From assembly GCA_964405095.1 (NCBI GenBank), contig CAYOML010000004.1, positions 5,080 through 69,079 of the forward strand: DNA of 64,000 nucleotides. The letters are read 5' to 3'. The DNA comes from an uncultured Candidatus Saccharibacteria bacterium. Lineage in GTDB: Bacteria > Patescibacteriota > Saccharimonadia > Saccharimonadales > EFPC-124. The notes below the pieces were generated by a model. It saw only the letters and a list, made by a program, of their open reading frames with translations. It made no database searches and was not told the origin of the DNA. The translations under genes and the position numbers were made by a program. Each line of letters opens with the position of its first letter. Position 1 is the stretch's first letter. Below are positions 8,801 to 61,045 of this stretch, piece by piece.

Positions 8801-9770
8801 CGATGCTGACGGCTCCGAAGTAATTATTTCCCTGACAGCAGCCGATGACGGCTTGATTTTCCGCAACCCGTTGACAACTGGTACCAACCTATCAGCATAC
8901 ATACTGACGATCGACCAGCTTGAGACTAGCGGCACAGGCTGTGCCGGTAGCCCAGGTTGTGGTGGCCTATTGATCCAAAGCGTTGGTACCGGCCCCTTGC
9001 TTAAGATTACCGACAACACAAGTGTCGCCAGAGACGTACTGACCATAGCCGACGGTGGAGCAACTACCTTCCGTAACCAGAGCGACAGCACCGCAGCGTT
9101 CAAGATCATGACAGCAGCAGGCACCGATGTCTTCAACGTCGACACTAGCAACTCCAAGTTCATACTCGGCACCAGTACCAATGGCATGGTATTCGATACC
9201 GATGCCGGCACCGGACCGACATATGTGGGTACTGGCCGCCCAACCAAGCGCATAACACTAGTGCCAGAATACCCTGGAGCAGTACTATCTGGCGACAGTG
9301 ACGGCAGCAACACCGGTACTATGACCTCAGACTTCTGCTCGAACAGTGCATTACTCAACATTAACTCCGCAGCCGCCTGTGCGACGTCTGGTGATCAGCA
9401 CAACTACTACACCTGGGTTACAACATCCGGAAACGACTACGATATATACATTACCTACAGAATGCCAAGCGACTTCGACGGGTTTACTTCCAGCACATCT
9501 ATTCAAATGTATGCTTGGCGTACAGACAGCACGGCTACAACAGAAGTAAAACTCGCGCTATTTGAGGGTGCTACAGAGTGTGGCACTGGATCGACCACAA
9601 ACATTGCGACTGGCACAGCTACATGGACGGAAAATCCACCAGGGGGAGACGAATCGGCTTGTTCGGGTATAGTCGCCAACGACATTGTAACCTGGAGAAT
9701 CAACATGGAAGCTAACAACAAGACCGTTCGCGCTGGCGAAATCCGCTTTGATTACTATAGTAAGTTCTAG
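1..9770 (+). CDS. giant repetitive surface/fibre-like protein (C-terminal >3,251 aa; true start upstream of window)
   Basis: One open frame runs from nt 3 to the TAG at 9768-9770. The codons before the listed TTG(15) read ITNA and continue the internal ANITNALAIGAHAITG repeat, so the gene begins outside the window. The protein is Gly/Thr/Ser/Ala/Asn-rich, has three internal repeat families, and ends in a unique C-terminal region of about 330 aa. Confidence 0.85.
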   Translation, partial: ITNALAIGAHAITGTNFSVTGAGAVTAVGVNAGAGLLQGAAGLTVSGATASINTSSNFATNINTGTSTGTVTIGGGSSPLVIDSTNFDVTSAGAVSGVTTLSTSGNITDGGDIAVNGGDITSTGALNITPTGTLTAGSTGRTLTLQGNASTTLSATDTGNTTTLSFQVPTANVTYRLATAAAGTYDVCTTVGNCSGTGSTNTLQAAYDAGNTILTTDGRDIAFTLANTTTDPNFTINTATGSTGFTSITRADGAGTADPAQLLLVKNNDTDRVLPIGISVQSAGGGVTTAFDASGANITNALAVGANAISGTNFSVTGAGAVTAVGVNSGTGLIQGTGGLTVSGATVSLNASSNFATNINTGTSTGTVTIGGGSAPLVIDSTNFDVTSAGAVSGVTTLSTSGIVTVGTLGANTGSSSICRNSSNQISTCSGSGGIDAAVTLQNAYANGNSISTTDARDVSLTLADTTTDGNFTITTATNSTGFTSFLRADGGGTADPAQLVLVKNNDTDRVQPLGISVQSAAGGITTAFDASGANITNALAIGAHAITGTNFSVTGAGAVTAVGVNAGAGLLQGALGLTVTGAAVSLNASSNFATNINTGTSTGTVTIGGGSAPLVIDSTNFDVTSAGAVSGVTTLSTSGNITDGGDIAVNGGDITSTGALNITPTGALTAGSAGQTLTLQGNASTSLSATDSGSTTSLVFQTPTANVNYRLATAAAGTYDICTSIGNCSGAATTLQTAYDAGNTILTTDGRDIGFTLANTTTDPNLTINTVTGGTGFTSITRADGAGTADPAQLLLVKNNDTDRVLPIGVSVQSAGGGVTTAFDASGANITNALAIGANAITGTNFSVTGAGAVTAVGVNSGTGLIQGTGGLTISGATISLNASSNFATNINTGTSTGTVTIGGGSAPLVIDSTNFDVTSAGALSGITTISTSSTINSQTISSTANFTGTVTIQGANALTLGVTSTSTGAVLFKGSTAASGTLTLIGQANPTTNTITLPNETGTICTSAASSPANCTNFAPATGSTVYATKALDNLLSVNINTALSFQNNQTATINFASAASAGGNALNITGQTAGGTANNGGAITIQAGTATTTGTGGLLTLSGGLPTATGVDGSVSLDTGHVFGATAGTIDIGNGAWGHTVNIATSGAALQTIAIGSNGNSGDTVTIEGGTSGYTIFIGNGNSDHGIKIGTGTGTQTVIVGSTSGSSGSAMQGGTGGVSLTTGGSLVANTGAINLTTGDQNGTSLNSGSITIRTGDNGGTDNSSGSINLQTGFKSGTGVVGAINLNTTNNGAINTGTGLMTVGGALTVNGVGTFNTDVDFTLAGTENVAVTHDLAGTINVFAITGTPNASANTANGLYIDQVNSANTNGFDSAIVINNSDTNLVIGNGILFSSSGGGFTNFIDTPSSVFKVDGSGNTTVADLICSSASCISTGEITDGTITGDDVNSNIAGLGLVKNTATTPDSLDVDLLGSQDGSGSTFSFSGLEFQGASSDTLTLLQGCSDNQILKWDDETGGNGRWDCAADNGGSMIVRESDGSPSVSSVSTLEFGPASTSSEEFIVTDQTGGVARVVIGTMVGKLNEAESVTGGWTFGTGATVFNSLATFNTDVDMIFGGTENLAVTSDLAGTVNVASIIGTPSASAGTTAGLFIQQAASANTNGIDSGIVIDNADTDLALATAIEITNTGAFATGITKGIDFNATGIVTDIELQNGEQVDNNTDDLITLTGTGGTNNETLVIDLDSVGASGVTLSSGGTHVLVNDNLSVGIDGATTENISYAGFAFSGNDLYTDDMLGVNGNAFIDGTLSVLGTSTFDGLATFNTDVDMTFAGTENQAITSDLAGTVNVLSIIGTPSASAGTTRGIFIQQAASASTNGIDSGIVIDNADTDLALATAIEITNSGAFATGITKGIDFNTTGIVTDIELQNAEQIDNNTDDNVTFTGTGGTNNETFTIDLDSVGSSGATLSSGGTFVLVNDNLSVGIDGATTENISTAGFAFSGNDLYVDDMFGVNGNTFLDGTVNFGAMITDANAVLYTDTNGLVTRVVETETGSQCLLSGAGASGIPVWGSCAGGSSPFTSDGTTITKTTIGDVLSLRYGDAADTQLTIENTTNNVIPTSDAAVIDLSGNTTGIITDGVDGLYIHTEFGDEGSTTTTSALHLDVDPVAITTSGDNFYALNIDGLSATSATEYAINIGSNWDQAIVANGKVSIGSSVGTSQLYVLGASGLGATDGLIVRGGDATGDTAQGGEGLKATGGDGADIGAGITPGLGGIIELIGGIGGAGDLTNDAAAGGGISITGGAGGNAAGANAGNGGNVVITGGASGTGGSATAGSVIISGGTGTGTGQGVVIVRPNSDASNIFQVQTNGTTAIFTADTETAVDPLKIKIGDTSTANAPVLLVLDQEDADPTGVTGAMYFQTGSNTFRCYTTSWGACAGSGSAPRLDQITAATTNGSAQNSANFTIEWDWNSLTTQRGLTMNSTATGLTTGGLLALGSTSSTYNHANGETGSLFTLGVKDGTTTSGAVTSTTNALSISATLAATTSTSGVKTLNAINANAPTFTSCSGGGTCVYNAFLGTLTAPAAGITTVNGINIVGAANTVAATTQSLIFLDPAASGNSNGTLVGLNIDSITTGGVATEYGINVGSGWDQAIVADGKVSIGSTIGTAQLRVTGANGSSSAGTDGIVVVSGNGSGASSFDGGANTITSGTGASNSSGATTAGKGGLITLTTGTGGATSGTSTAGGGAGGALSLIAGNGGAGSTSASLPGGTGGSIIITAGNGGDTNGTAAQGNGGSITLTAGAAGTIVDTPGVSGNINFLTASTGQGSAGSVIAKSGIDSDTFFQIQRNSGVAILTADTESTNNPLKIQIGDTSTANAPVMLVLDQEDADPSTGLLNGMMYYNTTTNKFKCYENTGWTNCIGSGGSTTLQQAYDADADGSEVIISLTAADDGLIFRNPLTTGTNLSAYILTIDQLETSGTGCAGSPGCGGLLIQSVGTGPLLKITDNTSVARDVLTIADGGATTFRNQSDSTAAFKIMTAAGTDVFNVDTSNSKFILGTSTNGMVFDTDAGTGPTYVGTGRPTKRITLVPEYPGAVLSGDSDGSNTGTMTSDFCSNSALLNINSAAACATSGDQHNYYTWVTTSGNDYDIYITYRMPSDFDGFTSSTSIQMYAWRTDSTATTEVKLALFEGATECGTGSTTNIATGTATWTENPPGGDESACSGIVANDIVTWRINMEANNKTVRAGEIRFDYYSKF
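3948..6065 (+). repeat. TFNTDVD...GTEN module: one degenerate copy (3948-~4200) plus two tandem 642-nt (214-codon) copies (4815-5456, 5457-~6065)
   Basis: ATFNTDVDM(I/T)F(G/A)GTEN...DLAGTVNV.SIIGTPSASAGTT.G.FIQQAAS...GIDFN.TGIVTDIELQN...VGIDGATTENIS is repeated almost residue for residue. The offset 5457-4815 equals 642 nt. Confidence 0.85.
6567..8756 (+). repeat. two distant homologous modules (6567-7304 and 7914-8756) of the giant gene
   Basis: Both start EY(A/G)IN(I/V)GS.WDQAIVA(N/D)GKVSIGS and contain a Gly-rich low-complexity core. Both end ...PLKI.IGDTSTANAPV.LVLDQEDADP...Y(F/Y)(Q/N)T...(F)(R/K)CY...W..C. Confidence 0.8.
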
Positions 9771-19762: not shown

Positions 19763-19778
19763 CCGATTTGCTCGCGAA

Positions 19779-19863
19779 CTGGTAACTTTCATTTTGTCCT
19801 CCACTCCGGCATAGGAAAATGCCTGCGTTTAAAGTCGGGAAAGGACAAAATGAAAGTTACCAG
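19779..19863. other. perfect 22-bp inverted repeat with 41-nt structured loop
   Basis: CTGGTAACTTTCATTTTGTCCT (19779-19800) is the exact reverse complement of 19842-19863. The loop contains an inner GGCAT-aggaaa-ATGCC hairpin. No T-run follows. Confidence 0.8.
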
Positions 19864-19908
19864 TTTGCTACCCTGCCGCTATTTTCGTAAACGAGTTACA
19901 ATTAGCGC

Positions 19909-25365: not shown

Positions 25366-25421
25366 TAATTTCTGCTGAAATTATCCGTTGGAAACATGCG
25401 TTGGCCGAAAAGCCTATCGCT

Positions 25422-25446
25422 TGGTCCAGCAGGTAGGACTCGAACC
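25422..25446 (-). repeat. F3: tRNA 3' fragment (T-loop, T-stem 3' half, acceptor 3' strand, discriminator, CCA) without a 5' half
   Basis: Minus sense reads GGTTCGAGTCCTACCTGCTGGACCA, with canonical spacing after the T-loop (5+7+1+3). The upstream sequence cannot form the acceptor, D or anticodon arms. It abuts the stop codon of the HAD-like gene. Confidence 0.65.
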
Positions 25447-26118
25447 TTAAGCTGCAACTTCTAAGAGCTTATGTCCAAAAGCCGCACCCGCATCTTCCGA
25501 GTATGGCTGTAGGGGAGTAACATGCAACGTTAGTGCTTCTGCTTCAAGACGAAAACCTATTATTGCAGCTGGTCCAACACCGCTTGCGAATTCGGTTACA
25601 AATAGATCACCAGTGGTTCTAGCCTTGGCTTGTTCGACTAGCCTTTCTATATATTCTTGGCTGCGACCATGTGATACGACACCTAATACAATAGGATGAT
25701 GTGTTGCTTCAGGATGTTGCAAGGGTTCAGTCAATGCCCCTAACAATATAGCACCAAGCTTGTGGGGCTTATCCTCAAGCATTCCTACTGTAGTTTGTCG
25801 GCTCTGCTCAGCAATGAATCTGCCCTTAGCTGCCTCGCTACCCTTATGAACGATTTGTTCGGATCGGCTAAAGAAATTAGCAAATCCAAGTTTTGTTATT
25901 GAACGAGCTGTTGCCATTCTGCGAATAAAAATATCAGGACGTCTAGATACTACTCCTGCAATTTCTACACCAGTTGACTGTACGCCCTTGAGGAAATCGG
26001 AGTAACCAGCTAAGCCGCGTAAAGGATATTTAGACCAATTACGTGGATCGGACTTTCTAGCAATTACTACAGCAGTGCCATCAAAGTCACTCCATAATCG
26101 AGGTGTTTGCTCGCTCAT
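25447..26118 (-). CDS. HAD-superfamily-like hydrolase (hypothetical)
   Basis: 223 aa. The N-terminal WSDFDGTAV matches HAD motif I (DxDGT). The rest is not recognised. Confidence 0.5.
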   Translation of the reverse strand: MSEQTPRLWSDFDGTAVVIARKSDPRNWSKYPLRGLAGYSDFLKGVQSTGVEIAGVVSRRPDIFIRRMATARSITKLGFANFFSRSEQIVHKGSEAAKGRFIAEQSRQTTVGMLEDKPHKLGAILLGALTEPLQHPEATHHPIVLGVVSHGRSQEYIERLVEQAKARTTGDLFVTEFASGVGPAAIIGFRLEAEALTLHVTPLQPYSEDAGAAFGHKLLEVAA

Positions 26119-26203
26119 TTACACTACCATATCACTTTTTAGAAAATCTACTAACTATAGTAAACAAAAGACCCCTTTTTACGGAGGTCATTACGCTTAT
26201 GCT

Positions 26204-26234
26204 TGGTAGCGGGGAGAGGACTCGAACCTCGCCA
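26204..26234 (-). repeat. F4: diverged copy of the T-arm/acceptor/CCA end of tRNA-fMet, no 5' half
   Basis: TGGTAGCGGGGAGAGGACTCGAACCTCGCCA compared with the tRNA's TGGTAGCGGGGGTAAGACTCGAACTTACGAC. The first 11 nt and the ACTCGAAC block are identical. Confidence 0.6.
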
Positions 26235-26281
26235 CCCTTGCTTAGTAAAAATGCAAGCATTTTTACTACGGCCCAGCAAGG

Positions 26282-26345: not shown

Positions 26346-26383
26346 AAGATAATAAGACCACCTGAAGGTGATCTTATTATCTT
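26346..26383. other. 17-bp hairpin abutting the 3' end of tRNA-fMet
   Basis: AAGATAATAAGACCACC-tgaa-GGTGATCTTATTATCTT (one C/T position). The last nt coincides with the tRNA's terminal A. Confidence 0.75.
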
Positions 26384-26457
26384 GGTAGCGGGGGTAAGAC
26401 TCGAACTTACGACCTCTTGGTTATGAGCCAAGCGAGCTGCCACTGCTCCACCCCGCG
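26383..26457 (-). tRNA. tRNA-fMet (initiator-like, anticodon CAT)
   Basis: The reverse complement reads CGCGGGG-TG-GAGC-AGTGGCA-GCTC-G-CTTGG-CTCATAA-CCAAG-AGGTC-GTAAG-TTCGAGT-CTTAC-CCCCGCT-A-CCA. It has an unpaired 1:72 position (C:U) and a 5' half nearly identical to E. coli tRNA-fMet as I remember it. Confidence 0.9.
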
Positions 26458-33833: not shown

Positions 33834-34679
33834 ATGTGGTGGCAAGCTATACAAACCTGGATATACGAGAATTGGTGGGTTGTGCTGCTTATTCTACTGG
33901 GAGCCTACCTAACCCGCCGGTTTGGCACGATGGCCATTGAAGTTATAATACGCCGGACAGTCACCCACCACACCCACGGCGATCTGACCAGCGACGACAT
34001 CAAAAAGCGTCAGAATACGCTAATTAGCATGGCCTCGGCCATTCTGCGCGTCCTAGTGTGGCTGGTTGCCGCCTTCACAATTTTAGGCCTGTTTCACCTA
34101 AATCTTACGCCTCTACTCGCTAGCGCCGGCATCCTAGGCGTGGCCATCGGTTTTGGTGCCCAGTCGATTATTAAAGATTTCTTGACCGGTATATTTATTA
34201 TTTTGGAAAACCAATACCGCGTCGGCGATGTCGTAGAGCTTGATGGCGCCAGCGGCAAGGTGGAACAGATCGGCATTCGTTCCACAGTGGTACGTGACAA
34301 CGACGGCAGCGTTCACTACATACCCAACGGCGCTATACAGCACACCATAAATAAAACTATGGGGCATGCGCGACTTAATTTGACCATAGCCGTGGCCCCT
34401 AGCACCGATGTCGATAAACTCACAACTGTCATTAACGATATCGGCCTTGCTATGGCCAACGACGAAAAATGGAAAACAAAAATCCTAGAACCACCCTATT
34501 TCTTAAATATTAGTAATTTCTCGAACACCACAATGGAAGTAAAAATTTCCGGCAAAATGCAAGCCTCGGCCCAATGGAGCGTCACCGGTGAACTGCGTAA
34601 ACGCCTACTTTCGGCCTTAAACAAAGAAGGCATTGGCCTGGCTGCGGGAGCCGCCCAAACGCCTGTAAAGAAGAAATAG
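33834..34679 (+). CDS. small-conductance mechanosensitive channel (MscS family)
   Basis: Three TM helices, then GVAIGFGAQSIIKDFLTGIFIILENQYRVGDVVELDGASGKVEQIGIRSTVVR. Confidence 0.85.
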   Translation: MWWQAIQTWIYENWWVVLLILLGAYLTRRFGTMAIEVIIRRTVTHHTHGDLTSDDIKKRQNTLISMASAILRVLVWLVAAFTILGLFHLNLTPLLASAGILGVAIGFGAQSIIKDFLTGIFIILENQYRVGDVVELDGASGKVEQIGIRSTVVRDNDGSVHYIPNGAIQHTINKTMGHARLNLTIAVAPSTDVDKLTTVINDIGLAMANDEKWKTKILEPPYFLNISNFSNTTMEVKISGKMQASAQWSVTGELRKRLLSALNKEGIGLAAGAAQTPVKKK

Positions 34680-34706
34680 TTGATTACTGCCTGCGAAGCA
34701 GAAAAA

Positions 34707-34800
34707 AAGGGGTGACGCGCGGCGGGGTTGCCCCAAAGTTTCTTTAAGGTATTTTCCATAAAGAATCTTTAGGGGCGGACCGCGGGGCAGGACCCGGCCA
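34707..34800 (+). repeat. palindromic intergenic element, copy A (core only, lacks outer CAAAACCC/GGGTTTTG ends)
   Basis: AAGGGGTGACGCGCGGCGGGGTTGCCCCAAAGTTTCTTTAAGGTATTTTCCATAAAGAATCTTTAGGGGCGGACCGCGGGGCAGGACCCGGCCA. It lies between convergent gene ends. Confidence 0.85.
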
Positions 34801-34814
34801 TCCTGGATGAAAAG

Positions 34815-35189
34815 CTAGTTCGAAATCTGCAAATCCTCGTCACTCAAACTCGTATCCCGAAAATCACCATAAGCCTGCAGATCGCTCTGACGGGCATCAA
34901 ACTCCTGCAAAAACTCATTAATAGTCGCAGCGGTAACAGGGCTAGCTGTATCGTAAGTCTTCTCTGGTGTCGGCTGCGAAATCTCGCTGCGCTCGCGTTC
35001 ATAACCGGGGCGGCTGAGGTCAAAACGGTAAAAACCCGTCCCGTAGTACAGGCTAACACTAGTGATAACCAGACCAATAGCCACCAACACCACCAAACTC
35101 AGAGCAACAAACAGCCGGTGGTGAGCCACTAAAACTCTAATGCGTTTAATGGTGGGATGCGTGCGAACTTTAGCGATTAGCTTTTTCAT
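34815..35189 (-). CDS. hypothetical membrane-anchored protein
   Basis: 124 aa. TM helix LFVALSLVVLVAIGLVITSVSLYY. Its start overlaps the upstream gene's stop (35189). Confidence 0.55.
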   Translation of the reverse strand: MKKLIAKVRTHPTIKRIRVLVAHHRLFVALSLVVLVAIGLVITSVSLYYGTGFYRFDLSRPGYERERSEISQPTPEKTYDTASPVTAATINEFLQEFDARQSDLQAYGDFRDTSLSDEDLQISN

Positions 35190-35719
35190 TAGTTACCTCC
35201 ACCCGAAGGCTTGGGCAAAGTAGGTTGAAGGGCTAACAACGCCTTACGGAATTGGCCGAGTGCTTTTTCGCCCTTAGTTACCTCAACACCTACACCCGCC
35301 CGCAGCACCCTAACCTTCTCGAGTGACTGAGCAAAGTCGGAGGCACGGTCGTTACAGTCAATTTGGCGCAAGGCCGACATGCTATCGTCATAACGCACAT
35401 AGGCATCACGGAATGCCAGCACTGCGGCTCTGAAGTCGGCAACAGACACATCAAATGTAGTGCTGGATAGGTTGTTGTGGTGCAGACGCGTAATTAAGGC
35501 GCTAATTTGGCGATTAACGTTTTCGTACTCGCGGCCGCGGTTGGTGCGCGCCACAAGATCACGGCGTTGTAGTTGATCGAGGCTGGTTTGTAACACCGTG
35601 CAACGCTGTTGGATTGCCGCCAAACGGCTGGCATCCAAAATATCTTGAGAGTGCGCAACGAGCGGCACAGCCAAAAAGGCCACAACAACGGTCATAACGA
35701 GGAAGCGTTTAAAAATCAT
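35189..35719 (-). CDS. hypothetical secreted helical protein
   Basis: 176 aa. Signal-peptide-like N-terminus (FLVMTVVVAFLAVPLVAHS). Confidence 0.55.
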   Translation of the reverse strand: MIFKRFLVMTVVVAFLAVPLVAHSQDILDASRLAAIQQRCTVLQTSLDQLQRRDLVARTNRGREYENVNRQISALITRLHHNNLSSTTFDVSVADFRAAVLAFRDAYVRYDDSMSALRQIDCNDRASDFAQSLEKVRVLRAGVGVEVTKGEKALGQFRKALLALQPTLPKPSGGGN

Positions 35720-35763
35720 CTATATCTAGGCTAGGCTAGGCAGATGGCCATGTCAAATCCTGT

Positions 35764-35918
35764 AGATCTGAATCTCAAAACCCTAATACATATGGCTGGG
35801 TCCTGCCGAGCGGTCCGCCCCTAGTTTGTATTTTTTTGGAAAATACCAAAAAAATAAAACCTGGGGCCGCCCCGCCGCTCGTCACCCCCTTGTTTATGGG
35901 GTTTTGAGAGTCAGATCT
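35764..35918 (-). repeat. palindromic intergenic element, copy B (full length, opposite orientation)
   Basis: Terminal arms AGATCTGAATCTCAAAACCC / GGGTTTTGAGAGTCAGATCT (1 mismatch). The core matches copies A, C and D when reverse-complemented. Confidence 0.85.
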
Positions 35919-35940
35919 GTAGCATATGGCCCATTGGTCG

Positions 35941-37830
35941 TTAATTAAGCGCAAAATATCCTGGCGGTGAGACGAAGGCATTCACAGGCACACTGACGTT
36001 GGCTATCTTCTTCGGTTTGCCGCCAAGGAGAGACAGAGCATAATCGGCTGTCTGGCCGCCGTCTGCCACCCGAAAGACAATCGTATTCCCCACCCAGTGA
36101 AGTGGTCCGCGGATTGCTGCCGAGCTATACAATCTGCGTTCTTGGCCGGTCGCCACGTTTTTTACCAGCAATGTTGTGACACCGTCGATCTTATCAACCA
36201 ATAGTCGTGTCTGGCCGTCAGTACTTGGCGATGACAAATAAACCCGGCTAGCACTACCTGGCGCCACGCTGTTCTTTACCTGGCCAGTATTGGCGTTGTA
36301 TTCGTGCCAATCACCAGAGCCAGTTTGATAGGCAAACCTATCGAAATCGCTTTGGGTCAGCTGCAAAAGACCATAGCCCAGATTTTTTTCGGTGCCGCCT
36401 TTTACCGGTACAACTCGTAATTCTGGGCCAGTGTCGTAGCCCTCTTCGCCAACAGTAAAACCGTAAGAATACACCACATTGCCTAGTGCCACCCGTGCAA
36501 TATCGAACCGCGACCCAGTACTTAGATCTTTGCGCTTGCCAGTCACCACATCAACGCTAACCAAGCGCTGCGAGCTCGCTGTACTTTTCGGCAACCGCTC
36601 GCCAACCGTATACACTAGCGACTCACCCGACCAATCTATAAAGCCAAACCATTGGCCGGAGTCGACTGCTATTACCTTTTTACTGGTCAGATTAATTACA
36701 TATAGCTTTTGTAACAGTGTACCCTGTGTATCGTGCGTGCCGTCACGGGTCGTGGCTACCACGGCGTATGTACCACCGGGATTATAGGTAACATTCAGAC
36801 CGGCGGTTTCTAGGGTACTGGCACTCATCACTTCACTAGGCAGGCTGCCATCGAGTCGGCTGCCATACACCACAGGACTGCCTGAACGCTGGCTAATAAA
36901 GTAGTGGCGGCCGCTAGGCACAAAGGTCACAGTTTGGACACCGCCAAGTGTAAGCTCAAATTCTTTATCTGTGTAAGCACCGCCGAACACAGCCTTGATT
37001 TTAGCCACCTTAGCCTCGGAGGCTGGCAGGCGTAGACTGACCATACCTTTATCATCTGGCGTGGTCACTGTGTCACCTACGCTGAACTTACCAAAGGTTA
37101 TGGGCTGGTCGCTCAACCAGTCACGCACTTGGAATTTGAGAGGCACACCAACGGCTTTAAGGTGGATTTTGACCTCCCGGACAGCCGTGTCTTGTTTGGA
37201 GCCGCCGAGCAGGTGGAAGAAAGGGTCAAAATCGAGATCTACCTCTGTTGTGACTGGTTCGTAGCCGGTTTTTTTGGCAGTGATTTGTAGTGTGCCGTAT
37301 TGCTGTTGGGTATCTAGCTTACCTTCATCGTTGGTCTGCTTTGTCGTGCCATTGAGCTCGACAGTCACCTTCTTAATAATGGCGCTGGGTTGGCCTGGCT
37401 CGACCTGGGTGTCGGTTGTTATGTGCACCGTTGTGCGCAAACCAACCAGATTCACCAGGAATATCCGGCTTGGAGTTATGAACCACGCTAGTAACAAGAT
37501 GGCTATGCTAGCGGCAGCCGTCAGCAGCCAAAATTTTGGGCGCTTAAAAAACGGTGGGCGGTCTTGGGGATGGAGTTCGACGTGCAGCGAGCTATCTGAC
37601 GGCACAGCCACGTCTTCGGCCTCGGCCGTATCAGTAGCATTGGCGGCCTGTCGTAACTCGTCATCACTGGCACCAATATCATCGGTCTCGGCACCGGGTT
37701 GACGCGGATCAGGCGGTGTCTCGGGCTGACTCTCAACATCCACCACCTCTGGCTTAAGTTCTTCAGCATCCAGTTCTTCTTCTAGTTCATCGAGGGTTCT
37801 CGGTGGTTTTGTCTCGTCATCTTCGGGCAT
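35941..37830 (-). CDS. hypothetical membrane-anchored extracytoplasmic protein (acidic N-terminus, Ig-like/propeller-like C-terminal region)
   Basis: 629 aa. Asp/Glu-rich first 90 aa, TM helix FWLLTAAASIAILLLAWFI, then a beta-rich region. No motif recognised. Confidence 0.6.
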   Translation of the reverse strand: MPEDDETKPPRTLDELEEELDAEELKPEVVDVESQPETPPDPRQPGAETDDIGASDDELRQAANATDTAEAEDVAVPSDSSLHVELHPQDRPPFFKRPKFWLLTAAASIAILLLAWFITPSRIFLVNLVGLRTTVHITTDTQVEPGQPSAIIKKVTVELNGTTKQTNDEGKLDTQQQYGTLQITAKKTGYEPVTTEVDLDFDPFFHLLGGSKQDTAVREVKIHLKAVGVPLKFQVRDWLSDQPITFGKFSVGDTVTTPDDKGMVSLRLPASEAKVAKIKAVFGGAYTDKEFELTLGGVQTVTFVPSGRHYFISQRSGSPVVYGSRLDGSLPSEVMSASTLETAGLNVTYNPGGTYAVVATTRDGTHDTQGTLLQKLYVINLTSKKVIAVDSGQWFGFIDWSGESLVYTVGERLPKSTASSQRLVSVDVVTGKRKDLSTGSRFDIARVALGNVVYSYGFTVGEEGYDTGPELRVVPVKGGTEKNLGYGLLQLTQSDFDRFAYQTGSGDWHEYNANTGQVKNSVAPGSASRVYLSSPSTDGQTRLLVDKIDGVTTLLVKNVATGQERRLYSSAAIRGPLHWVGNTIVFRVADGGQTADYALSLLGGKPKKIANVSVPVNAFVSPPGYFALN

Positions 37831-37876
37831 ATTGGTTATCCTTAAAAACTAATCCTAGTATAAACTACTTAGTGTA

Positions 37877-38497
37877 ATGACCGCACAATCAACCACCCAC
37901 CTTGCCACCCACGATCAAGTTCTAGCTCGGCTGATCGCCACACATGGCCCCTTCACACCTAGGCCGCACACCGATTACTACTGGGAGTTGGTTGATTCGA
38001 TCATCAGCCAGCAGCTGAGCATTAAGGCCGCGCGCACCATCGTACAACGCTTTTTAGCACTATTTAATGGGGAAGTTCCGAATGCCGAACAACTGCTAGA
38101 TAAAACACCTGAGCAGTTACGCGCTGTGGGCATGTCAGGTGCCAAAAGCCGCTATGTTCTAGACCTTGCACAGCACGTGCACGACGGCAGATTACAAGTC
38201 AAAAAACTACCAGAACTCAGTAATGAAGAAGTTATCAAGGAGCTGGTGGCGGTTAAAGGCATTGGCGAGTGGACCGCCCACATGTTTTTAATCTTCGCAC
38301 TGGGGCGGCTTGACATTTTACCAGTTGGCGACCTTGGTTTTCGGGCTGGCTTGCAAAAACTCTATGCTTTTGACCACCTGCCAAGCGCCGCCGAAATCCA
38401 CCAGCTGGCCACTGACCATCACTGGCACCCTTACGAAAGCGTCGCTACCTGGTATATCTGGCAGTCACTCGACAACGCACCAAAGGTTGGAACATAG
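37877..38497 (+). CDS. alkA: DNA-3-methyladenine glycosylase II (AlkA-type HhH-GPD)
   Basis: SIISQQLSIKAARTI...LRAVGMSGAKSRYVLDLA...LVAVKGIGEWTAHMFLIFALGRLDILPVGDLG is the canonical HhH-GPD with the catalytic Asp. Confidence 0.8.
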   Translation: MTAQSTTHLATHDQVLARLIATHGPFTPRPHTDYYWELVDSIISQQLSIKAARTIVQRFLALFNGEVPNAEQLLDKTPEQLRAVGMSGAKSRYVLDLAQHVHDGRLQVKKLPELSNEEVIKELVAVKGIGEWTAHMFLIFALGRLDILPVGDLGFRAGLQKLYAFDHLPSAAEIHQLATDHHWHPYESVATWYIWQSLDNAPKVGT

Positions 38498-38640
38498 AAC
38501 TCATTTCAAAACCCATCAAAAAGGGGGTGACACGCGGCGGGGCTGCCCCAAAGTTTTTTATGGTATTACCCCATAAAAAATCTTTAGGGGCGGACCGCGT
38601 GGCAGGACCCAGCCATAAGAATTAAGGTTTTGAAATAAAC
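38498..38640 (+). repeat. palindromic intergenic element, copy C
   Basis: ATTTCAAAACC...GGTTTTGAAAT ends with the same core as copies A and D. It lies between convergent gene ends. Confidence 0.85.
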
Positions 38641-38657
38641 TCTAGAAACCACGATCA

Positions 38658-39398
38658 TTAACTTAACAGTAAGATCAGCCCCGACACACAAATAGTTACC
38701 GCCAGAGCTATTTTCACGAATGCCGCTCCCTGTTTTATGGCTATTCGGCTGCCTATGTATGTCCCAATCGTCGAACCGATTAAACTGGCCACACAATGAG
38801 ACCACACCACTAAGCCTTGGATTGCCAGCAGAACGGCCAGAACGACTGCTTGAACGGCCTGAGCAACACGTTTGGTGGCCGTGGCCTCAAGAGCATTGAG
38901 CCCAAAAGCAAACATTAGAACCAACACTAGAACGATACCTATACCACTACCAACAATGGTCTGAGCAAAGGAAATAAGTGCGTAAACTATAAACCCAAGT
39001 GACATCCAATGATGCGCCCTGGGCCCGGGCTTCAGCGCCCGTTTGTTAATGAACATTAGTGGGGTCATTAGAACTAGAGCCACACCAATCAGTTTTTGGA
39101 ATAGCTCAGGGTCGAGCCTAGGAATCGCCCAGGCCGCAAAAATCGAGCAGACCAGTGTAATTATCATCAGCGGAACGACAAGTTTGCGGTTTACCATCCC
39201 CTCACCCTTAAATGCAGCTACTGAACCGGTAGCTACCCCGAGAGCGCCAAACTTCGAGGTAGCCAAAGCGCTCGCCGGTGCCATACCTAGAAAAATATAA
39301 TATGGCACAAACACCGCTCCACCACCGCCGCCACCGATGCCGGTTAATATGCTCACTGCCAGACTCAACCCAAATGTCAACAATACCAACCAGTCCAT
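38658..39398 (-). CDS. TauE/SafE (TSUP) family anion exporter-like membrane protein
   Basis: 246 aa, about 7-8 TM helices, GIGGGGGGAVFVPYYIFLGM...ATSKF motif. Confidence 0.75.
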   Translation of the reverse strand: MDWLVLLTFGLSLAVSILTGIGGGGGGAVFVPYYIFLGMAPASALATSKFGALGVATGSVAAFKGEGMVNRKLVVPLMIITLVCSIFAAWAIPRLDPELFQKLIGVALVLMTPLMFINKRALKPGPRAHHWMSLGFIVYALISFAQTIVGSGIGIVLVLVLMFAFGLNALEATATKRVAQAVQAVVLAVLLAIQGLVVWSHCVASLIGSTIGTYIGSRIAIKQGAAFVKIALAVTICVSGLILLLS

Positions 39399-39823: not shown

Positions 39824-42319
39824 TTAGCTTAGCGTTTTTTCACCTTTTTTAGCTTTCATACCGGCCTCAGGTATAGTGACGTAAAAGGTCGTGCCCTTAC
39901 CTGGCTTAGTTTCGAAACGGGCTTCACCACCAGTGGCATCAATAATTAATTTAACCAAGTATAGTCCCAAGCCAGTGCCCTCACCCTCGACAGCAATGGC
40001 ATTCTCGGCACGGTAAAAGCGCTCAAAAATGTGAGGTTGATCGTCAACTGGGATACCAATGCCATTGTCTTTTACAACCAGCACATGACCACTAGCCTGT
40101 TCCTTGAAGCTGACATCAACCGCACCCTTGCCCTCGACGGTATAACGGATAGCATTGGCCAGCAAGTTATGTATTACCTGACCAAATATTGCTGGGTCAA
40201 GATTAACCTTGGCCTGGCGGCTGTCACGCGTAAAATTAATCGTTACCCGCTTAATATCGGCCATTGGCCTGAGCTCTTCGATGTGTGATTGGATCAGCTC
40301 GTTAATATCGGTTGGTTCGGGTACAACTCGCACTCGGCCTAATTCGACGCGCGATACGTTCAAAATATCACCCACCAGTCGAATCATGCGTGATGTCGAA
40401 AGTTGGATTCGCTGCATGTATTCGTACTGTTTGTCATTAAGCGGCCCGACCTGTTTTTTGACCAACATCTCGCTGAACAGCCTCATGGCAGTCAGCGGCG
40501 TCCGTAGTTGGTGTGAAACTATCGAGATAAACTCATCTTTGGCCAAATCGAGCTGTTCTTGTTGAGTCACGTCGCGGAAAACCACAATTACTCCACGCTG
40601 CTTGCCGTCGGCATCAAACACTGGCGACGCCGAGTCGGCCACCGAGAGTACCACGCCATCCTTGCGAGTCAAAATAGTACCGTGTGCCATCTCGGCCTGA
40701 GACCCACCGAGCGCCCGGCCAATAAACCCGTCGTGTTGGGCCTTAGGATCATCACGGCTACCAAACTTTAAGATCTCGTTGTAGTGCTTACCCAGTACCT
40801 CCGAGCTGACATAGCCACTAAGTTGCTCGGCCTTTCTATTGAACAGGATTATCCGGCTAGCTTCGTCTAGAACAAACACACCATCACCAATGCTCGATAG
40901 GATGGCCTCGTCTTTACTCTTGGTGGCAACTGCTTCATCACGTTCATTCTGCAGGTCTTCGGTCATGGCGTCAGCTAGCTTGAGTGTCCGATCCCTAGCC
41001 CGAATCTGCTGCCAGAAAAGCATAAGCAGCAGCGTTGCCACAATAATCGAGCTGGCAATCGTCGTGCGGATTTGCCGTTGCTCGGTTGCCGTCAACCCAA
41101 AACCCACCGGCACACGACTATCTAGCGTCCAACTGTGACCGGCAATCGTCAATGGTTGCATGTTGGTCAGTGAAACATCAATACTTGTTTGGTCGCCTTG
41201 ACCATACACCAAGCGCGATTCGTCAATTACCCGTAGTGAGTTCTGGCTGGAAGCACTATTGAAAACTGCTTTAAAAAAGTTCTGGTAACTGAAGATTCCG
41301 TTTACGAAGCCGGTGAGTTGTTCGCGTCGTTGATCGACTGTACCGGGTACATTGTGGCGGTAAACCGGTACAGTAACCACAAAGCCCTTAGCCTGGTCAC
41401 CGCGGCTGTCTTTAGTGGCAAGCTCAATGGTGTGGCTGGCTGTGGGCTGTCCACTGTCACGAGCAGCTTGCAGGGTAGCTAACCACACCGGATCAAGCGA
41501 CCGATCAGTACCCTTGGATACCGTTTTTGCGGGCGCGCCAACATAAGTCACTAAGTAATGGTCATTACCTTTAGCATCCGCCACTCGGCGCACATAGTTT
41601 ATAGTTTCTATACCTGGGTAGCGATTGAGAGTATTAAGGGATGAAAAGTAGGTTGTAAACTCACTCTCCTCCACAGCATTACTGGAATCAAACAGGCCTC
41701 TAAAACCAATCAGGGCGTCGATGTAAGCCTGCACTCGATCTTTTAGTGATTCGTGCAGACTGGTGAGTTCCTTGTCGAAATTAGTTTGGGCTTGGTTATC
41801 AAGCCTATCCTGTGCCTGCTGCCAGGAGTTATAGGCCGAAAACCCAACCAGCATCAATACAATGAGGATAACCCAGCCAGACACCGAAATACGGCGCAAG
41901 CGTTCAATCAGGCCACTTTGAACCCGGCTCCCGGCCTTGGGGTCGCTTAACCATTGCAGCGCTTTCGTAGCTTTCGTAAAATAATGAACCTTTGTGCCCA
42001 CACCAGTAATCCGTAAAACATAAGACACAATTGGTCGCAAATAACGGTTGCCGACCACCGCAACGGCATCAAAGTCGGTGCCTAAGAACTCCTTGGCCTG
42101 GCTGCGCGTAGCACTATCAGTACTTTTAACTTCGCTAAGATCAATGAAAATCGCTACCCGTTTGCCCTCGCTCCGGAATTTAGCTACTAACGGCTTGTTG
42201 GCCTCACGCATCGCAACAATCGTGCCGGCTGTCTGACGGCCGTGTAGTACATGGCGAATAATCCCCTGTTCGTCGATGTATATCTGGTTATCCTGCAGGC
42301 TCGACAAGTCTTTGGCCAT
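39824..42319 (-). CDS. sensor histidine kinase (N-terminal STAS-like module, TM-bounded extracytoplasmic domain, PAS, HisKA, HATPase_c)
   Basis: H-box SIVSHQLRTPLT, N-box LLANAIRYT, G-boxes DNGIGIP / GTGLGLYL. TM helices lie near aa 150 and 420. A PAS-like segment covers aa 470-580. Confidence 0.85.
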   Translation of the reverse strand: MAKDLSSLQDNQIYIDEQGIIRHVLHGRQTAGTIVAMREANKPLVAKFRSEGKRVAIFIDLSEVKSTDSATRSQAKEFLGTDFDAVAVVGNRYLRPIVSYVLRITGVGTKVHYFTKATKALQWLSDPKAGSRVQSGLIERLRRISVSGWVILIVLMLVGFSAYNSWQQAQDRLDNQAQTNFDKELTSLHESLKDRVQAYIDALIGFRGLFDSSNAVEESEFTTYFSSLNTLNRYPGIETINYVRRVADAKGNDHYLVTYVGAPAKTVSKGTDRSLDPVWLATLQAARDSGQPTASHTIELATKDSRGDQAKGFVVTVPVYRHNVPGTVDQRREQLTGFVNGIFSYQNFFKAVFNSASSQNSLRVIDESRLVYGQGDQTSIDVSLTNMQPLTIAGHSWTLDSRVPVGFGLTATEQRQIRTTIASSIIVATLLLMLFWQQIRARDRTLKLADAMTEDLQNERDEAVATKSKDEAILSSIGDGVFVLDEASRIILFNRKAEQLSGYVSSEVLGKHYNEILKFGSRDDPKAQHDGFIGRALGGSQAEMAHGTILTRKDGVVLSVADSASPVFDADGKQRGVIVVFRDVTQQEQLDLAKDEFISIVSHQLRTPLTAMRLFSEMLVKKQVGPLNDKQYEYMQRIQLSTSRMIRLVGDILNVSRVELGRVRVVPEPTDINELIQSHIEELRPMADIKRVTINFTRDSRQAKVNLDPAIFGQVIHNLLANAIRYTVEGKGAVDVSFKEQASGHVLVVKDNGIGIPVDDQPHIFERFYRAENAIAVEGEGTGLGLYLVKLIIDATGGEARFETKPGKGTTFYVTIPEAGMKAKKGEKTLS

Positions 42320-52840: not shown

Positions 52841-52991
52841 GCAATCAAATCTCAAAACCCCATAAACAAGGGGTGGCGCCTGGCGGGGCTGCCCCAAAGT
52901 TTCTTTATGGTATTTTCCATAAAGAAATCTTTAGGGGCGGACCAGGCGGCAGGACCCAGCCATTAGTATTAGGGTTTTGAGATTTGATTGC
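52841..52991 (+). repeat. palindromic intergenic element, copy D (full length, perfect 20-nt terminal inverted repeats)
   Basis: GCAATCAAATCTCAAAACCC ... GGGTTTTGAGATTTGATTGC, with the shared core in between. It lies between divergent gene starts. Confidence 0.9.
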
Positions 52992-59704: not shown

Positions 59705-61045
59705 TTAGTTAGGCTTATTAACTTCTACTTTTGAGGGAATTATAACATAGAAAACGGTGCCATGTTTTTCGGTCGATTCGAAGCTGATTTTGCCGCGCGC
59801 GCGTTCCACCATGGCCTTTGTAATATATAGCCCTAGGCCCGAGCCATCGGTCGAGACTGTGGTCGCATTGCTAGCTCGGAACAGTTTGGTAAAAATTTTG
59901 CGTTGGTCAACGTCCGGGATACCCACACCCTGGTCGCGTATCTCGATCACGGCATCAGAAACCTGTTGCTGCATAGAAATACTAATTTCCTTACCTTTAG
60001 GCGAATACTTAATCGCGTTTGATACCAGGTTTTGTAAGATAATATGCATGGCATTAGGGTCGATCAAAGCTGGCAGCAAGTGTTTGTTGGCGCTGGTCGT
60101 TACTGTTAATGACTTGGCCCGGATTTCAACATCCAGATCTTTCAACACATTACGCAGTACGGCCTTAATGTCGACGGCTTCGGGTGTCAGATTCAGCGTG
60201 CCAAGGTCTATGCGCGACACATTCAGCAAGGCATCTACCAGCCGTACCATATGATTATTAGAGTCGTATACCTGCTGCAAGTATTTAGTGCGTTGTTCGG
60301 CGGTCAGTTTCTTATCGTCGATCAGCGTTTTGATATACCAGCGGATGGCAGTTAGTGGTGTGCGTAGTTGGTGCGAGGCTATCGAAATAATCTCGCTTTT
60401 GGCCCGGTCCATGTTGCTTTCATCGGTTATATCACGTATAACCACCGCCGCGCCGGTGACTTTGCCGTCCCGGGTGGTGGGTGTGATTGTCATGCCTACC
60501 CGCCGGTGGTGCAGGCCGATGCTTTTGACAAAATAGGCTGGGCCCATTGTCATACCAAACGCCACACGGCGTTTACGGATGATAGCCGTGCGTATCGGGT
60601 GGTGCTCGATAGCGATGCGCCTGCCGTCGACATCTTCCAGCCCAACGATTTGGGTAGCATCCTGGCTGAGAATCCGCGCTCTCTCGCCGAGCAGCGTGAC
60701 GGCTGGCTCATTCACATAAGTCGTGTGCCAGTTGTTATCTACGGTCAACACACCCTCGCCCAAGCTATTGAGGATGGCCTCAACACGGACTTTTTCGTTG
60801 GCAATTATGTCGTTGGCGGTCTTAAGTTCGCGCACTGAAGTTTCGAACTCGGCCACTTTTTCGCGGACTGTGTCTAACATTGTTTGAATACCAACAAAGA
60901 ACTCAGTAAGTTCATCTGCTGGCTCGGTAACCGTAACCCTGCCCGAAAAATCACCGACTGCCGCCTTAGCAAACACCGGTGCGAGCTCATGGAGGCGTTT
61001 ATTCAGCCACTGTTGATATTGTTCGAGATCGCCTGGCGCCGCCAT
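59705..61045 (-). CDS. cytoplasmic sensor histidine kinase (HAMP-like helix, PAS, HisKA, HATPase_c)
   Basis: No TM helix. H-box SIASHQLRTPLT, N-box LVSNAIKYS, DQGVGIP, GSGLGLYI. Confidence 0.85.
   Translation of the reverse strand: MAAPGDLEQYQQWLNKRLHELAPVFAKAAVGDFSGRVTVTEPADELTEFFVGIQTMLDTVREKVAEFETSVRELKTANDIIANEKVRVEAILNSLGEGVLTVDNNWHTTYVNEPAVTLLGERARILSQDATQIVGLEDVDGRRIAIEHHPIRTAIIRKRRVAFGMTMGPAYFVKSIGLHHRRVGMTITPTTRDGKVTGAAVVIRDITDESNMDRAKSEIISIASHQLRTPLTAIRWYIKTLIDDKKLTAEQRTKYLQQVYDSNNHMVRLVDALLNVSRIDLGTLNLTPEAVDIKAVLRNVLKDLDVEIRAKSLTVTTSANKHLLPALIDPNAMHIILQNLVSNAIKYSPKGKEISISMQQQVSDAVIEIRDQGVGIPDVDQRKIFTKLFRASNATTVSTDGSGLGLYITKAMVERARGKISFESTEKHGTVFYVIIPSKVEVNKPN

Follow-up and report, generated by a model that had tools for sequence, protein, structure and literature searches.

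The four sequences A to D, found in the 64-kb stretch of DNA analysed here (the window), are probably copies of a non-autonomous mobile family of palindromic repeats that is specific to Saccharibacteria (TM7). These bacteria, like other Patescibacteria, have very small and streamlined genomes that are thought to be poor in repetitive DNA. The element, one imperfect palindrome of 86–155 nt, is a new family within a known kind, the non-autonomous palindromic repeats.

Four copies in the window

A covariance model recovered the cores of all four copies where a preliminary description of this DNA had placed them, with E-values of about 1e-12 to 1e-13, and found no fifth copy in the window at E ≤ 1. 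The core matches lie at 34704-34801 on the plus strand for copy A (69 bits, E = 4e-12), at 35792-35893 on the minus strand for copy B (76 bits), and on the plus strand at 38519-38616 for copy C (76 bits) and 52865-52963 for copy D (72 bits). With refined limits, copy A (34710-34795, plus strand) is the core hairpin alone, running from GGGTGAC to GGCAGGACCC, and is devoid of the outer TCAAAACC stem. The inverted termini ascribed to the full copies are present in the other three, where an outer TCAAAACC/GGTTTTGA stem encloses the core: copy B at 35771-35911 (minus strand, core 35798-35887), copy C at 38503-38636 (plus strand, core 38525-38610, outer stem ATTTCAAAACC/GGTTTTGAAAT) and copy D at 52841-52991 (plus strand, core 52871-52957, 45-nt inverted-repeat outer stem). 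Each copy folds end to end into one long hairpin, as had been proposed, and does so on both strands, with z-scores of −3.7 to −9.7 relative to shuffles (A, −46 kcal/mol, z = −3.7; B, −62 kcal/mol, z = −6.5; C, −57 kcal/mol, z = −5.8; D, −77 kcal/mol, z = −9.7). The alignment of the copies also bears out the shared core with its complementary variable box. One 15-mer with three mismatches is insignificant alone, as four matches were reached in 10 of 100 shuffles; the ~90-nt alignment is significant.

The genomic contexts differ in the way first described, and none of the four copies lies inside a gene. Copy A occupies a 135-nt spacer between the converging MscS and 124-aa genes. Copy C, between the converging HhH-GPD and TauE genes, starts 5 nt past the HhH-GPD stop codon. 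Copy B has co-directional genes of 629 and 176 aa on either side, and copy D separates the diverging starts of an iron-permease-like gene and an MFS gene. The open reading frames 34496-34759, 35775-35981 and 38584-38805, already suspected to be spurious, appear among the listed ORFs, and each overlaps an element; in the protein database, domain-free ORFs of 43–93 aa have been called over such elements.

Hairpin structure and strand asymmetry

The unit of the family is a hairpin of 80–100 nt, to which some lineages add an outer stem that brings it to about 155 nt. Stem P1 (CGGGU/ACCCG with a variable extension) is separated from P2 by an invariant asymmetric internal loop, GA / GCAGG. P2 has 7 bp, of which the four middle pairs vary freely, and a second invariant asymmetric loop, CGGGGCA / GGA, separates it from P3 (GCNCC/GGGGC); P4 is a variable hairpin. 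Across 108 copies, 84% of the cells were paired against 71.5% in shuffles, and two-sided changes affected 404 cells against 156 ± 10. Double changes were seen in 16 of the 26 pairs, and slid controls gave a covariation score of at most about one third of that observed. The ends (CTGA)ATCTCAAAACCC/GGGTTTTGAGAT(TCAG) are common to copies B, C and D and to several lineages; copy A and most family members carry a variable P1 extension instead of shared termini. The conserved part of the element is the interior of the hairpin, not its termini.

The two strands of the hairpin are not equivalent. Among 36 different P2 box pairs we counted 41 G·U against 2 A·C, together with 41 tandem GA/AG, and these G·U and tandem G·A pairs are tolerated on one strand only. 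With RNA parameters, the G-rich strand folds more stably than its complement in 89 of the 108 cores, and with DNA parameters in 107. P3 and P4 show the opposite trend, folded G·U being commoner on the other strand (50 versus 96), and the asymmetry is restricted to P2 and the loops. Given the invariant asymmetric loops and the one-strand-only pairing in P2, a single-stranded hairpin of the G-rich strand is most likely. The element would probably be recognised, and then copied or moved, in this form, the hairpin strand being either an RNA copy or DNA that becomes exposed during replication.

The elements point at random with respect to the genes around them. Where the flanking genes are co-directional, the sense orientation was found 16 times and the antisense 14 times; 15 further copies lie in spacers between converging genes and eight between diverging genes, and eight of the copies found within genes are antisense.

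Distribution of the family

That further copies should exist had been anticipated, and covariance-model and pattern scans gave more than 130 of them beyond the window, nearly all from Saccharibacteria genomes and metagenomes. Family copies score 59–100 bits with the covariance model. The pattern scans, which favour intact copies, returned 40 exact-pattern loci from at least 25 Saccharibacteria species, Nanosynbacter being among the carriers, and at least 120 metagenome loci. The number of exact-pattern copies per genome is low, from one to five. In one genome (L070), two copies are located between dnaN and recF.

The suggestion that this is no described family agrees with all the collections we consulted. 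Rfam gave nothing at the gathering threshold in the window or at 13 loci of the family, and at E ≤ 10 it returned weak matches only, far under the gathering scores of their families; with no Rfam covariance-model match, we rejected a known RNA family, including self-cleaving ribozymes and SRP RNA. Phage and plasmid collections did not match the element. The literature searched held no description of it, and the MITE papers found there were unrelated. The family is apparently undescribed so far.

Copies inside genes

The element had been described as intergenic. This holds for the window but not for the family, in which about one copy in five is in a gene: 21 of 115 clean copies (about 18%) lie within long ORFs and are read through in frame. 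Their hosts, as identified with Pfam, are ValRS, GluRS, DnaX, an ABC ATPase, Dus, TopA and MnmA, and the element interrupts the host domain in four of them, ValRS, GluRS, TopA and MnmA, leaving it as two stretches. Each such copy adds a loop of 25–35 residues rich in Gly, Ala, Arg and Pro, and across these genes translation of the element uses two or more sense-strand frames and also the antisense strand. The frame is kept open in all 21, and there is a stop in one frame of three in each half of the element. Gene splitting is rare, since five closely flanked intergenic copies each lie between two different genes. In two genomes (L127 and L129), fpg is split into two reading frames at the element, with frame offsets that differ between the genomes; the C-terminal half is under strong purifying selection (dN/dS 0.036 at dS 0.37).

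Empty sites and mobility

We compared the window with a syntenic relative (L162/L163) at 74% protein identity. The spacer that holds copy A (34680-34814) is 4 nt there, the spacer of copy B is 59 nt and has no element, and at site C the two converging genes overlap without an element in L162, L163 and L164. Copies A, B and C were gained after the split from this relative, or lost there; they are insertions or losses, not conserved regulatory RNAs. A CTGCGAAGCAG mini-hairpin (34691-34701, plus strand) lies just 5′ of copy A, within the DNA absent from the relative. In genes, the ValRS insert is missing from four orthologs and the ABC-ATPase and GluRS inserts from one each. Of the copy in the dnaX linker, L087 retains a decayed remnant and L135 has no trace.

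A check for target-site duplications, as suggested at the outset, showed flanking repeats at two copies of the window and none at the other two. Copy B lies between TAGATCTG (35763-35770, read on the plus strand) and CAGATCTG (35912-35919), which pair with each other; at the empty site of L162, CAGATATG occurs once. This 8-bp repeat is itself palindromic and could represent either a duplicated target site or merely a prolonged inverted repeat. Copy C is flanked on both sides by the 5-bp AACTC (38498-38502 and 38638-38642). There is no flanking duplication at A and D, and the other copies have no consistent repeat.

Orthologous insertions in the ABC ATPase and in DnaX have core blocks with 100% identity, whereas the flanking coding DNA is visibly more diverged and P4 has been swapped for a different paired sequence. 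Such invariance requires either gene conversion between copies or selection acting on every one of them, and it counts against a selfish insert, since a dead insert should decay; the pattern used for retrieval does, however, favour intact copies. The element also appears to mediate rearrangements between its copies.

The absence of a transposase or RAYT gene from the window was confirmed: its ORFs include no transposase, HUH, integrase or reverse-transcriptase domain, and about 20 have no Pfam match of any kind. In 1.09 Mb of flanking DNA we found no IS200-like or Y1-like match, which is a weak negative. A longer, gene-bearing version of the element was not seen, and the genes between paired copies are pth and a FemAB-type gene. 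The mobilising enzyme would act in trans and be encoded outside the window. The family inserts between genes in either orientation and also within genes, where the copies that persist leave the frame intact, a behaviour known from Rickettsia palindromic elements.

Comparison with known repeats

The palindromic elements of Rickettsia (RPE; Ogata et al. 2000, 2002) are found in frame within housekeeping genes and read through, according to a later account (PMC10969869). RPEs and the present element are both palindromic repeats of about 100–150 bp in reduced genomes, both occur between genes and in frame within unrelated housekeeping genes, both are translated there as a conserved peptide, both have orthologous insertions common to different species, and a transposase is known for neither. 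The likeness is one of behaviour; the host phylum is unrelated, and the loci from the pattern scans all come from Saccharibacteria or metagenomes. The present element differs in its invariant asymmetric internal loops within the hairpin, in a stem with one-strand-only G·U and G·A pairing, and in being translated in two or more sense frames and antisense. The share of copies in genes is about 18% here but nearly half in some RPE families.

The preliminary description likened the element to REP, Correia and MITE-type repeats. It is indeed a novel palindromic repeat, but strict MITE membership is not established. Like the Correia MITEs of Neisseria, it is short, non-coding and multi-copy, differs in presence between relatives, has inverted-repeat ends (here in B, C and D) and has copies that nest or adjoin. 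In the strict sense, a MITE carries terminal inverted repeats that all copies share, duplicates a target site of fixed length and has a parent insertion sequence with the same ends, whereas here no parent is known, the duplication is not constant, and many copies are without conserved termini, conservation peaking in the interior. With REP/RAYT (HUH Y1) and the ends of IS200/IS605 it would share imperfect hairpins recognised on one strand, an orientation tied to replication rather than transcription, and a trans-acting enzyme. REPs, however, are strictly extragenic, 20–40 nt long and have a conserved GTAG; we rejected this class given the 80–100-nt core without a conserved GTAG, the copies in genes and the failure to find a RAYT/Y1 gene in the window and 1.09 Mb of flanking DNA. 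In IS608, the placement of the folding strand is described as opposite to the C-rich-strand placement observed here. Integron attC sites are likewise single-strand hairpins with conserved unpaired bases, strand selectivity and a variable terminal structure of variable length. Here, however, the ends are TCAAAAC/GTTTTGA rather than RYYYAAC/GTTRRRY core sites, and instead of a one-orientation cassette array we found mixed orientations, ordinary housekeeping genes between copies, and copies in genes; attC was rejected on these grounds.

Alternative explanations

The structural conservation could also point to a function for the host. The element might be a structured RNA or an RNA–protein binding site, spread or retained for its usefulness, with a role at transcript ends, in stability or as an insulator and with the conserved loops as a protein-binding surface. 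Invariant loops with co-varying stems across many species would fit, as would orthologous cores that stay invariant while flanking codons and P4 change, the one-strand-only G·U and tandem G·A of P2, and the position of A, B and C, each downstream of a same-strand gene 3′ end. We nevertheless consider this unlikely: with random orientation (16 sense and 14 antisense, and eight antisense in genes), about half of the copies would show the wrong strand in mRNA. Close relatives also have no copies at A, B and C, some copies decay, there is no U-tract terminator, and core-only copies are too small for a promoter. An intrinsic terminator was rejected, as the preliminary description had already doubted a simple terminator role: no terminator-like site or U tract coincides with copies A–C, and orientation relative to genes is random. 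If the elements are mobile repeats, effects on neighbouring genes would be secondary, as a barrier between converging transcripts (A and C) or a leader structure (D). It seems rather unlikely that the core is more than a handle by which a transposase recognises it, namely an active structured nucleic acid kept by selection at each site, for example a small RNA or ssDNA module that draws in a host enzyme for its own copying or repair (a homing-like gene conversion), or a segment removed or bypassed in expression. Such a core would jointly explain why the loops are perfectly invariant where orthologous insertions are ancient, why P4 is replaced by new paired sequences, and why the frame-broken fpg is under purifying selection.

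Bypass or removal may be put more narrowly, as an untranslated intervening sequence that is excised from mRNA (a mini-intron) or skipped by the ribosome, making insertions in genes harmless. The highly structured, conserved core and the fpg frame broken at the element, with its C-terminal half still under purifying selection, agree with this, but either half of fpg has a start codon of its own, and the two may function as a split protein. The open frame in all 21 other in-gene copies is what selection for read-through predicts, not splicing; both orientations occur in genes; and 80–100 nt is far under the size of known self-splicing introns, with no match to a ribozyme family. We hold this to be very improbable. 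A DNA site for a chromosome-handling protein (in replication, nucleoid organisation or recombination), fork-oriented like polar sequences or the BIMEs bound by gyrase or IHF, would account for a bias in strand placement: the G-rich strand coincides with the locally C-rich strand, the one with negative GC skew, in 50 of 68 copies (p about 1e-4), although the bias does not exceed about 74% and copies at orthologous sites are non-independent. Third-codon-position skew agrees (46 of 67 copies), the two orientations with respect to gene strand are balanced (35 versus 33), three of the four window copies obey the skew rule, and the dnaN–recF spacer holds two copies. Yet better survival of asymmetric hairpins on one template strand gives the same bias, copies are few and irregularly spaced, and a host site is unexpected in essential coding sequences or missing from close relatives; this reading is quite unlikely. 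Assembly or binning artefacts or chance similarity are hardly credible: one Logan contig of the same organism stops within the element, where assemblers break, but the copies come from independent assemblies of many studies and habitats, on long contigs, with co-varying differences and intact ORFs.

Implications

As the element breaks assemblies and seeds spurious ORF calls, masking or modelling it is advised in annotation. Its insertions have written loops of 25–35 residues into topoisomerase I, the clamp loader and aminoacyl-tRNA synthetases, all of them essential enzymes. Culture on a host is feasible for some Saccharibacteria, Nanosynbacter among them, so the mechanism by which palindromic elements are mobilised might become testable. 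If the family is mobile, it would be a second, independent case of selfish DNA in coding genes besides Rickettsia.

Four copies of one palindromic repeat

The preliminary description had claimed four copies of a novel palindrome that resembles REP/Correia/MITE elements and for which a simple terminator role cannot account in every context. Our results support the palindromic repeat, and add that copies also occur inside genes and that the element is widespread in Saccharibacteria. Copies A (34710-34795, + strand), B (35771-35911, - strand), C (38503-38636, + strand) and D (52841-52991, + strand) share an alignment of about 95 nt that contains long invariant blocks. A lone 15-mer with up to three mismatches is not significant, but the whole alignment is. 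A repeat finder also picked up these sequences, both among direct repeats (families D4 and D6) and among inverted ones (pairs I1-I5). A covariance model built from 39 family members gave them scores of 69-76 bits, with E about 1e-12 to 1e-13, and detected no fifth copy in the window at E ≤ 1. On either strand, each copy is predicted to fold into one long hairpin, much more stable than shuffled sequence (z from -3.7 to -9.7). The box, i.e. the variable paired part of stem P2, differs between the copies yet stays complementary: ACGCGCGG/CCGCGGGG in A, ACGAGCGG/CCGCTCGG in B, ACACGCGG/CCGCGTGG in C and GCGCCTGG/CCAGGCGG in D.

The gene contexts initially named for these copies are correct. A lies between the converging genes for MscS and a 124-aa protein, B between co-directional genes for proteins of 629 and 176 aa, C between the converging genes for an HhH-GPD glycosylase and a TauE permease, and D between an iron-permease-like gene and an MFS transporter gene whose starts diverge. 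A terminator scan found no terminator-like site at A, B or C. Secondary effects are possible at all four places: A and C fill gaps between converging genes, a TTGACA-type box (conserved in a relative) precedes the 176-aa gene directly downstream of B, and D is within a divergent promoter region. A Logan contig identical to the window (L161, 2392-2426) stops inside the position of copy B, showing that the repeat breaks short-read assemblies.

Other features of the window

The window has other repeats and fragments. On the - strand, a complete tRNA-Met gene is followed downstream by two tRNA 3' halves, each consisting of T arm and acceptor end (25419-25447, 26201-26244 and 26383-26457); ARAGORN and Rfam call a complete tRNA only at the tRNA-Met region. 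The halves flank a 223-aa ORF lacking a Pfam match, as if a small element had integrated here and left attachment-site remnants. Another ORF without a Pfam match (3-9770) is giant, at more than 3,255 aa; it runs past the window start and holds internal repeats of about 714-890 nt with 66-78% identity (families D1-D3, D5 and D7). A 27-nt inverted repeat (19774-19868; 96% complementary, 41-nt loop), unrelated to the element family, directly follows a pyridine-nucleotide-disulphide oxidoreductase gene. Two histidine-kinase genes (40485-40909 and 60345-60781) share stretches of 77-80% DNA identity (repeats D10 and D14) and belong to paralogous two-component systems.

Distribution of the family

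Searching a one-genome-per-species collection for the exact pattern TAGGGGCGGACC-N4-GGCAGGACCC gave 40 stretches, from at least 25 species and with at most five copies per genome. Nearly all carriers are MAGs labelled Saccharibacteria, Saccharimonadales or Nanosynbacter. The homologs of the 629-aa protein are named Saccharimonadales, hence the window is Saccharimonadales-like. A slightly shorter pattern retrieved at least 120 stretches from metagenomes and had zero matches in viral contigs; the element also had no match in phage and plasmid records. Retrieved family copies score 59-100 bits with the covariance model. Rfam, with its ribozyme, SRP and terminator-like families, gave no relevant match whether the gathering score or E ≤ 10 was applied, and full-text literature searches returned no description of the element. 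No longer form bearing a gene within P4, the innermost hairpin of the element, turned up, and the genes between paired copies are ordinary.

A hairpin with invariant loops and covarying stems

We derived the layout of the core, the conserved hairpin of 80-100 nt, from 115 clean copies set in register. The outermost stem, P1, pairs 5' (C)GGGU with 3' ACCC(G), and its outward extension is variable and often complementary. An invariant outer internal loop (5' GA, 3' GCAGG) leads to P2, a stem of 7 bp (5' C-NNNN-GG, 3' CC-NNNN-G) for which we counted 36 different box pairs. It is followed by an inner internal loop, also invariant (5' CGGGGC(A), 3' GGA), by P3 (5' GCNCC, 3' GGGGC) and by the hairpin P4, which ranges from essentially none (locus L037) to more than 60 nt and often has a UAAU loop. 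By inspection, the GA/GCAGG loop does not have the canonical G.A/A.G arrangement of a kink-turn.

The pairing was quantified in 108 model-aligned copies, an alignment that is itself fitted to the model. Standard pairs fill 84% of the cells, against 71.5% in shuffles, changes on both sides occur in 404 cells (156 +/- 10 in shuffles), and 16 of the 26 pairs show double changes. When the partner columns are slid, pairing drops to 26-48%.

Some copies carry additional modules. In GC-rich species, a second conserved hairpin lies directly 3' of the core (L002, L004, L020, L021, L034, L035, L040 and L147) with the form AGCGACCTACGT...(often GCGAAGC)...ACGACGGGAGCG; inside genes it translates as S-D/E-L-R...D-G-S. 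The unit is thus composite in those lineages. In other loci, an unrelated palindromic element of about 90 nt (...CTGCAGCCCCGAAACTTCACGATTGACAGC...GAACTGCCACTGGCAGTTCTCACCC) is nested in the core (L050, about 2221-2405; L072, 1670-1854; L080, 6099-6282; L015, about 7300-7420). It is at the same point, after CGGGG and before P3, in either orientation, which makes this spot a target for another small mobile element.

Empty sites and decay

A syntenic relative (L162, with a second assembly, L163) encodes a 628-aa protein 74% identical to the 629-aa protein of the window. The gene order of its contig is that of the window (response regulator, histidine kinase, response regulator, TauE, HhH-GPD, 628 aa, 176 aa, 124 aa, MscS), and the covariance model finds no element in it. 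At site C, 160 nt separate the genes in the window and the two converging genes overlap in the relative; the spacers are 221 nt against 59 nt at site B, and 135 nt against 4 nt at site A. Site C is also empty in the more distant L164 (57% identity). The element represents an insertion, not a regulatory site that is conserved. On the - strand, copy B has CAGATCTG on one side and CAGATCTA on the other, against a single CAGATATG at the empty site; copy C has GAGTT on either side. A and D have no flanking repeat of this type, and no consistent target duplication was found among 22 copies with an outer stem, the extra terminal stem of some copies. One locus, L043, combines the left flank of the L013 copy with the right flank of the L039 copy, both from one Nanosynbacter MAG, which suggests rearrangement by recombination between copies.

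At sites common to several species, the conserved blocks are identical. The coding DNA around them has visibly diverged further, and P4 is swapped for different, still paired sequence. These patterns fit poorly with a purely dead selfish insert. Decay is also observed: L078 has a decaying copy upstream of dnaX, and of the copy inside dnaX a remnant is left in L087 and nothing in L135. This either-intact-or-decayed picture, drawn from an exact-pattern retrieval that favours intact copies, suggests either gene conversion, with other copies as donors, or selection on structure.

Some bacteria have the SRP RNA gene upstream of dnaX. The copy just upstream of dnaX is an ordinary family member, decaying in one species and without match to any SRP model, and we rejected an SRP-RNA origin. 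Between the element and dnaX lies a conserved non-coding stretch (L078, 5537-5702; L087, 4285-4448), with a promoter-like pair TTGACT...TATACT and then about 110 conserved bases. It has no match in Rfam and could represent a leader or small RNA missed in annotation.

Copies inside genes

A simple longest-ORF gene model assigned the context of the 115 copies. Between co-directional genes we found 16 copies in the same sense and 14 in antisense, 15 lie between converging and eight between diverging genes, and 41 have an unclear context. The remaining 21 are inside long ORFs that read through them (13 sense, 8 antisense). Pfam identifies the host genes as ValRS, GluRS, an ABC ATPase, DnaX, Dus, topoisomerase I, Fpg, MnmA and a CobW-type GTPase; in ValRS, GluRS, TopA and MnmA the catalytic domain is matched as two stretches. 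A profile of the element-encoded peptides retrieved only ten short orphan ORFs from the protein database and is uninformative on host genes.

The 3' half translates as L-G-A-D-R-A-A-G-P in most sense copies (the sense copy of L014 uses another frame), and the 5' half as G-D-A-R-R-G-S or R-V-T-x-G-G-A-A-P. Antisense copies give S-G-P-A-x-R-S-A-P ... G-A-A-P-P-R-V-T. Each half has a stop codon in one frame of three (TGA in GGGTGA, TAG in TTAGGGG), hence the survival of open frames looks selected. The 35-residue segment of ValRS is missing from four orthologs, and the insert is missing from one ortholog each of the ABC ATPase and GluRS. Same-site insertions recur across species in the ABC ATPase (L117, L124, L145, L040), the DnaX linker (L078, L118, L140, L159, L075), GluRS (L002, L089) and Dus (L120, L021 and, with weak homology, probably L004). 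This in-gene, in-frame behaviour matches that of Rickettsia palindromic elements (RPE), as summarised in PMC10969869.

One case speaks for an intron- or bypass-like element: an antisense copy breaks fpg (MutM) of L127 (4853-6029) and L129 (7057-8219) into two reading frames, with both halves conserved and the C-terminal half under strong purifying selection (dN/dS 0.036 at dS 0.37). A split protein is an equally possible reading of this case. The two genomes have different frame offsets, and L071 has the same insertion in frame. Five closely flanked intergenic copies have unrelated genes on each side (e.g. DnaG and ABC, DnaN and RecF, KsgA and MetRS), so split genes are rare.

Strand asymmetry, orientation and proposed mechanism

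P2 contains 41 G.U pairs and only 2 A.C, and G.U occurs in about ten distinct box variants, A.C in two. Tandem G.A/A.G, for which the other strand would give C.T/T.C, is part of the commonest box (CGCGAGG/CCGAGCG), and the internal loops are asymmetric as well as invariant. With RNA parameters, the G-rich strand gives the more stable fold in 89 of 108 cores; with DNA parameters, it does so in 107 of 108. In P3/P4 the excess of folded G.U pairs is reversed, with 96 on the opposite strand and 50 on the G-rich one. The P2 bias is not reproduced there, which limits the G-rich-strand inference: that only this strand matters is supported in the conserved centre but does not extend to the hairpin as a whole.

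Orientation relative to the gene strand is even. Of 68 copies, 50 have their G-rich strand on the locally C-rich strand (p about 1e-4, indicative only since orthologous copies are non-independent), as do 46 of 67 by third-position skew. This points to a link with replication; it could lie in the mechanism, or asymmetric hairpins could survive better on one of the two templates.

The element is structured, conserved and multi-copy, is gained or lost between relatives, is tolerated in frame in genes, and has an orientation independent of transcription. Among the alternatives to a mobile palindrome, a host RNA element would agree with the covarying stems. For half of the copies, however, the 'wrong' strand would enter the mRNA, and together with the missing terminators at A-C this is evidence against a cis-acting mRNA element as primary role. 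A DNA site for chromosome handling would agree with the skew-linked orientation, and has the empty sites to account for. For a mobile palindrome, a trans-acting enzyme would recognise the single-stranded hairpin that the G-rich strand forms. It would use the invariant loops as its handle, leaving the stems open to covariation. The searches made found no mobilising enzyme, parent element or fixed target duplication. The element lacks the defining features of attC and REP sequences, and a Correia-type assignment was rejected as well, terminal inverted repeats and flanking duplications being present in some copies only. It is a new RPE/REP/MITE-like family of palindromic repeats, likened to RPEs by their description, with conserved asymmetric loops, partial strand asymmetry and replication-linked orientation as its less usual features.
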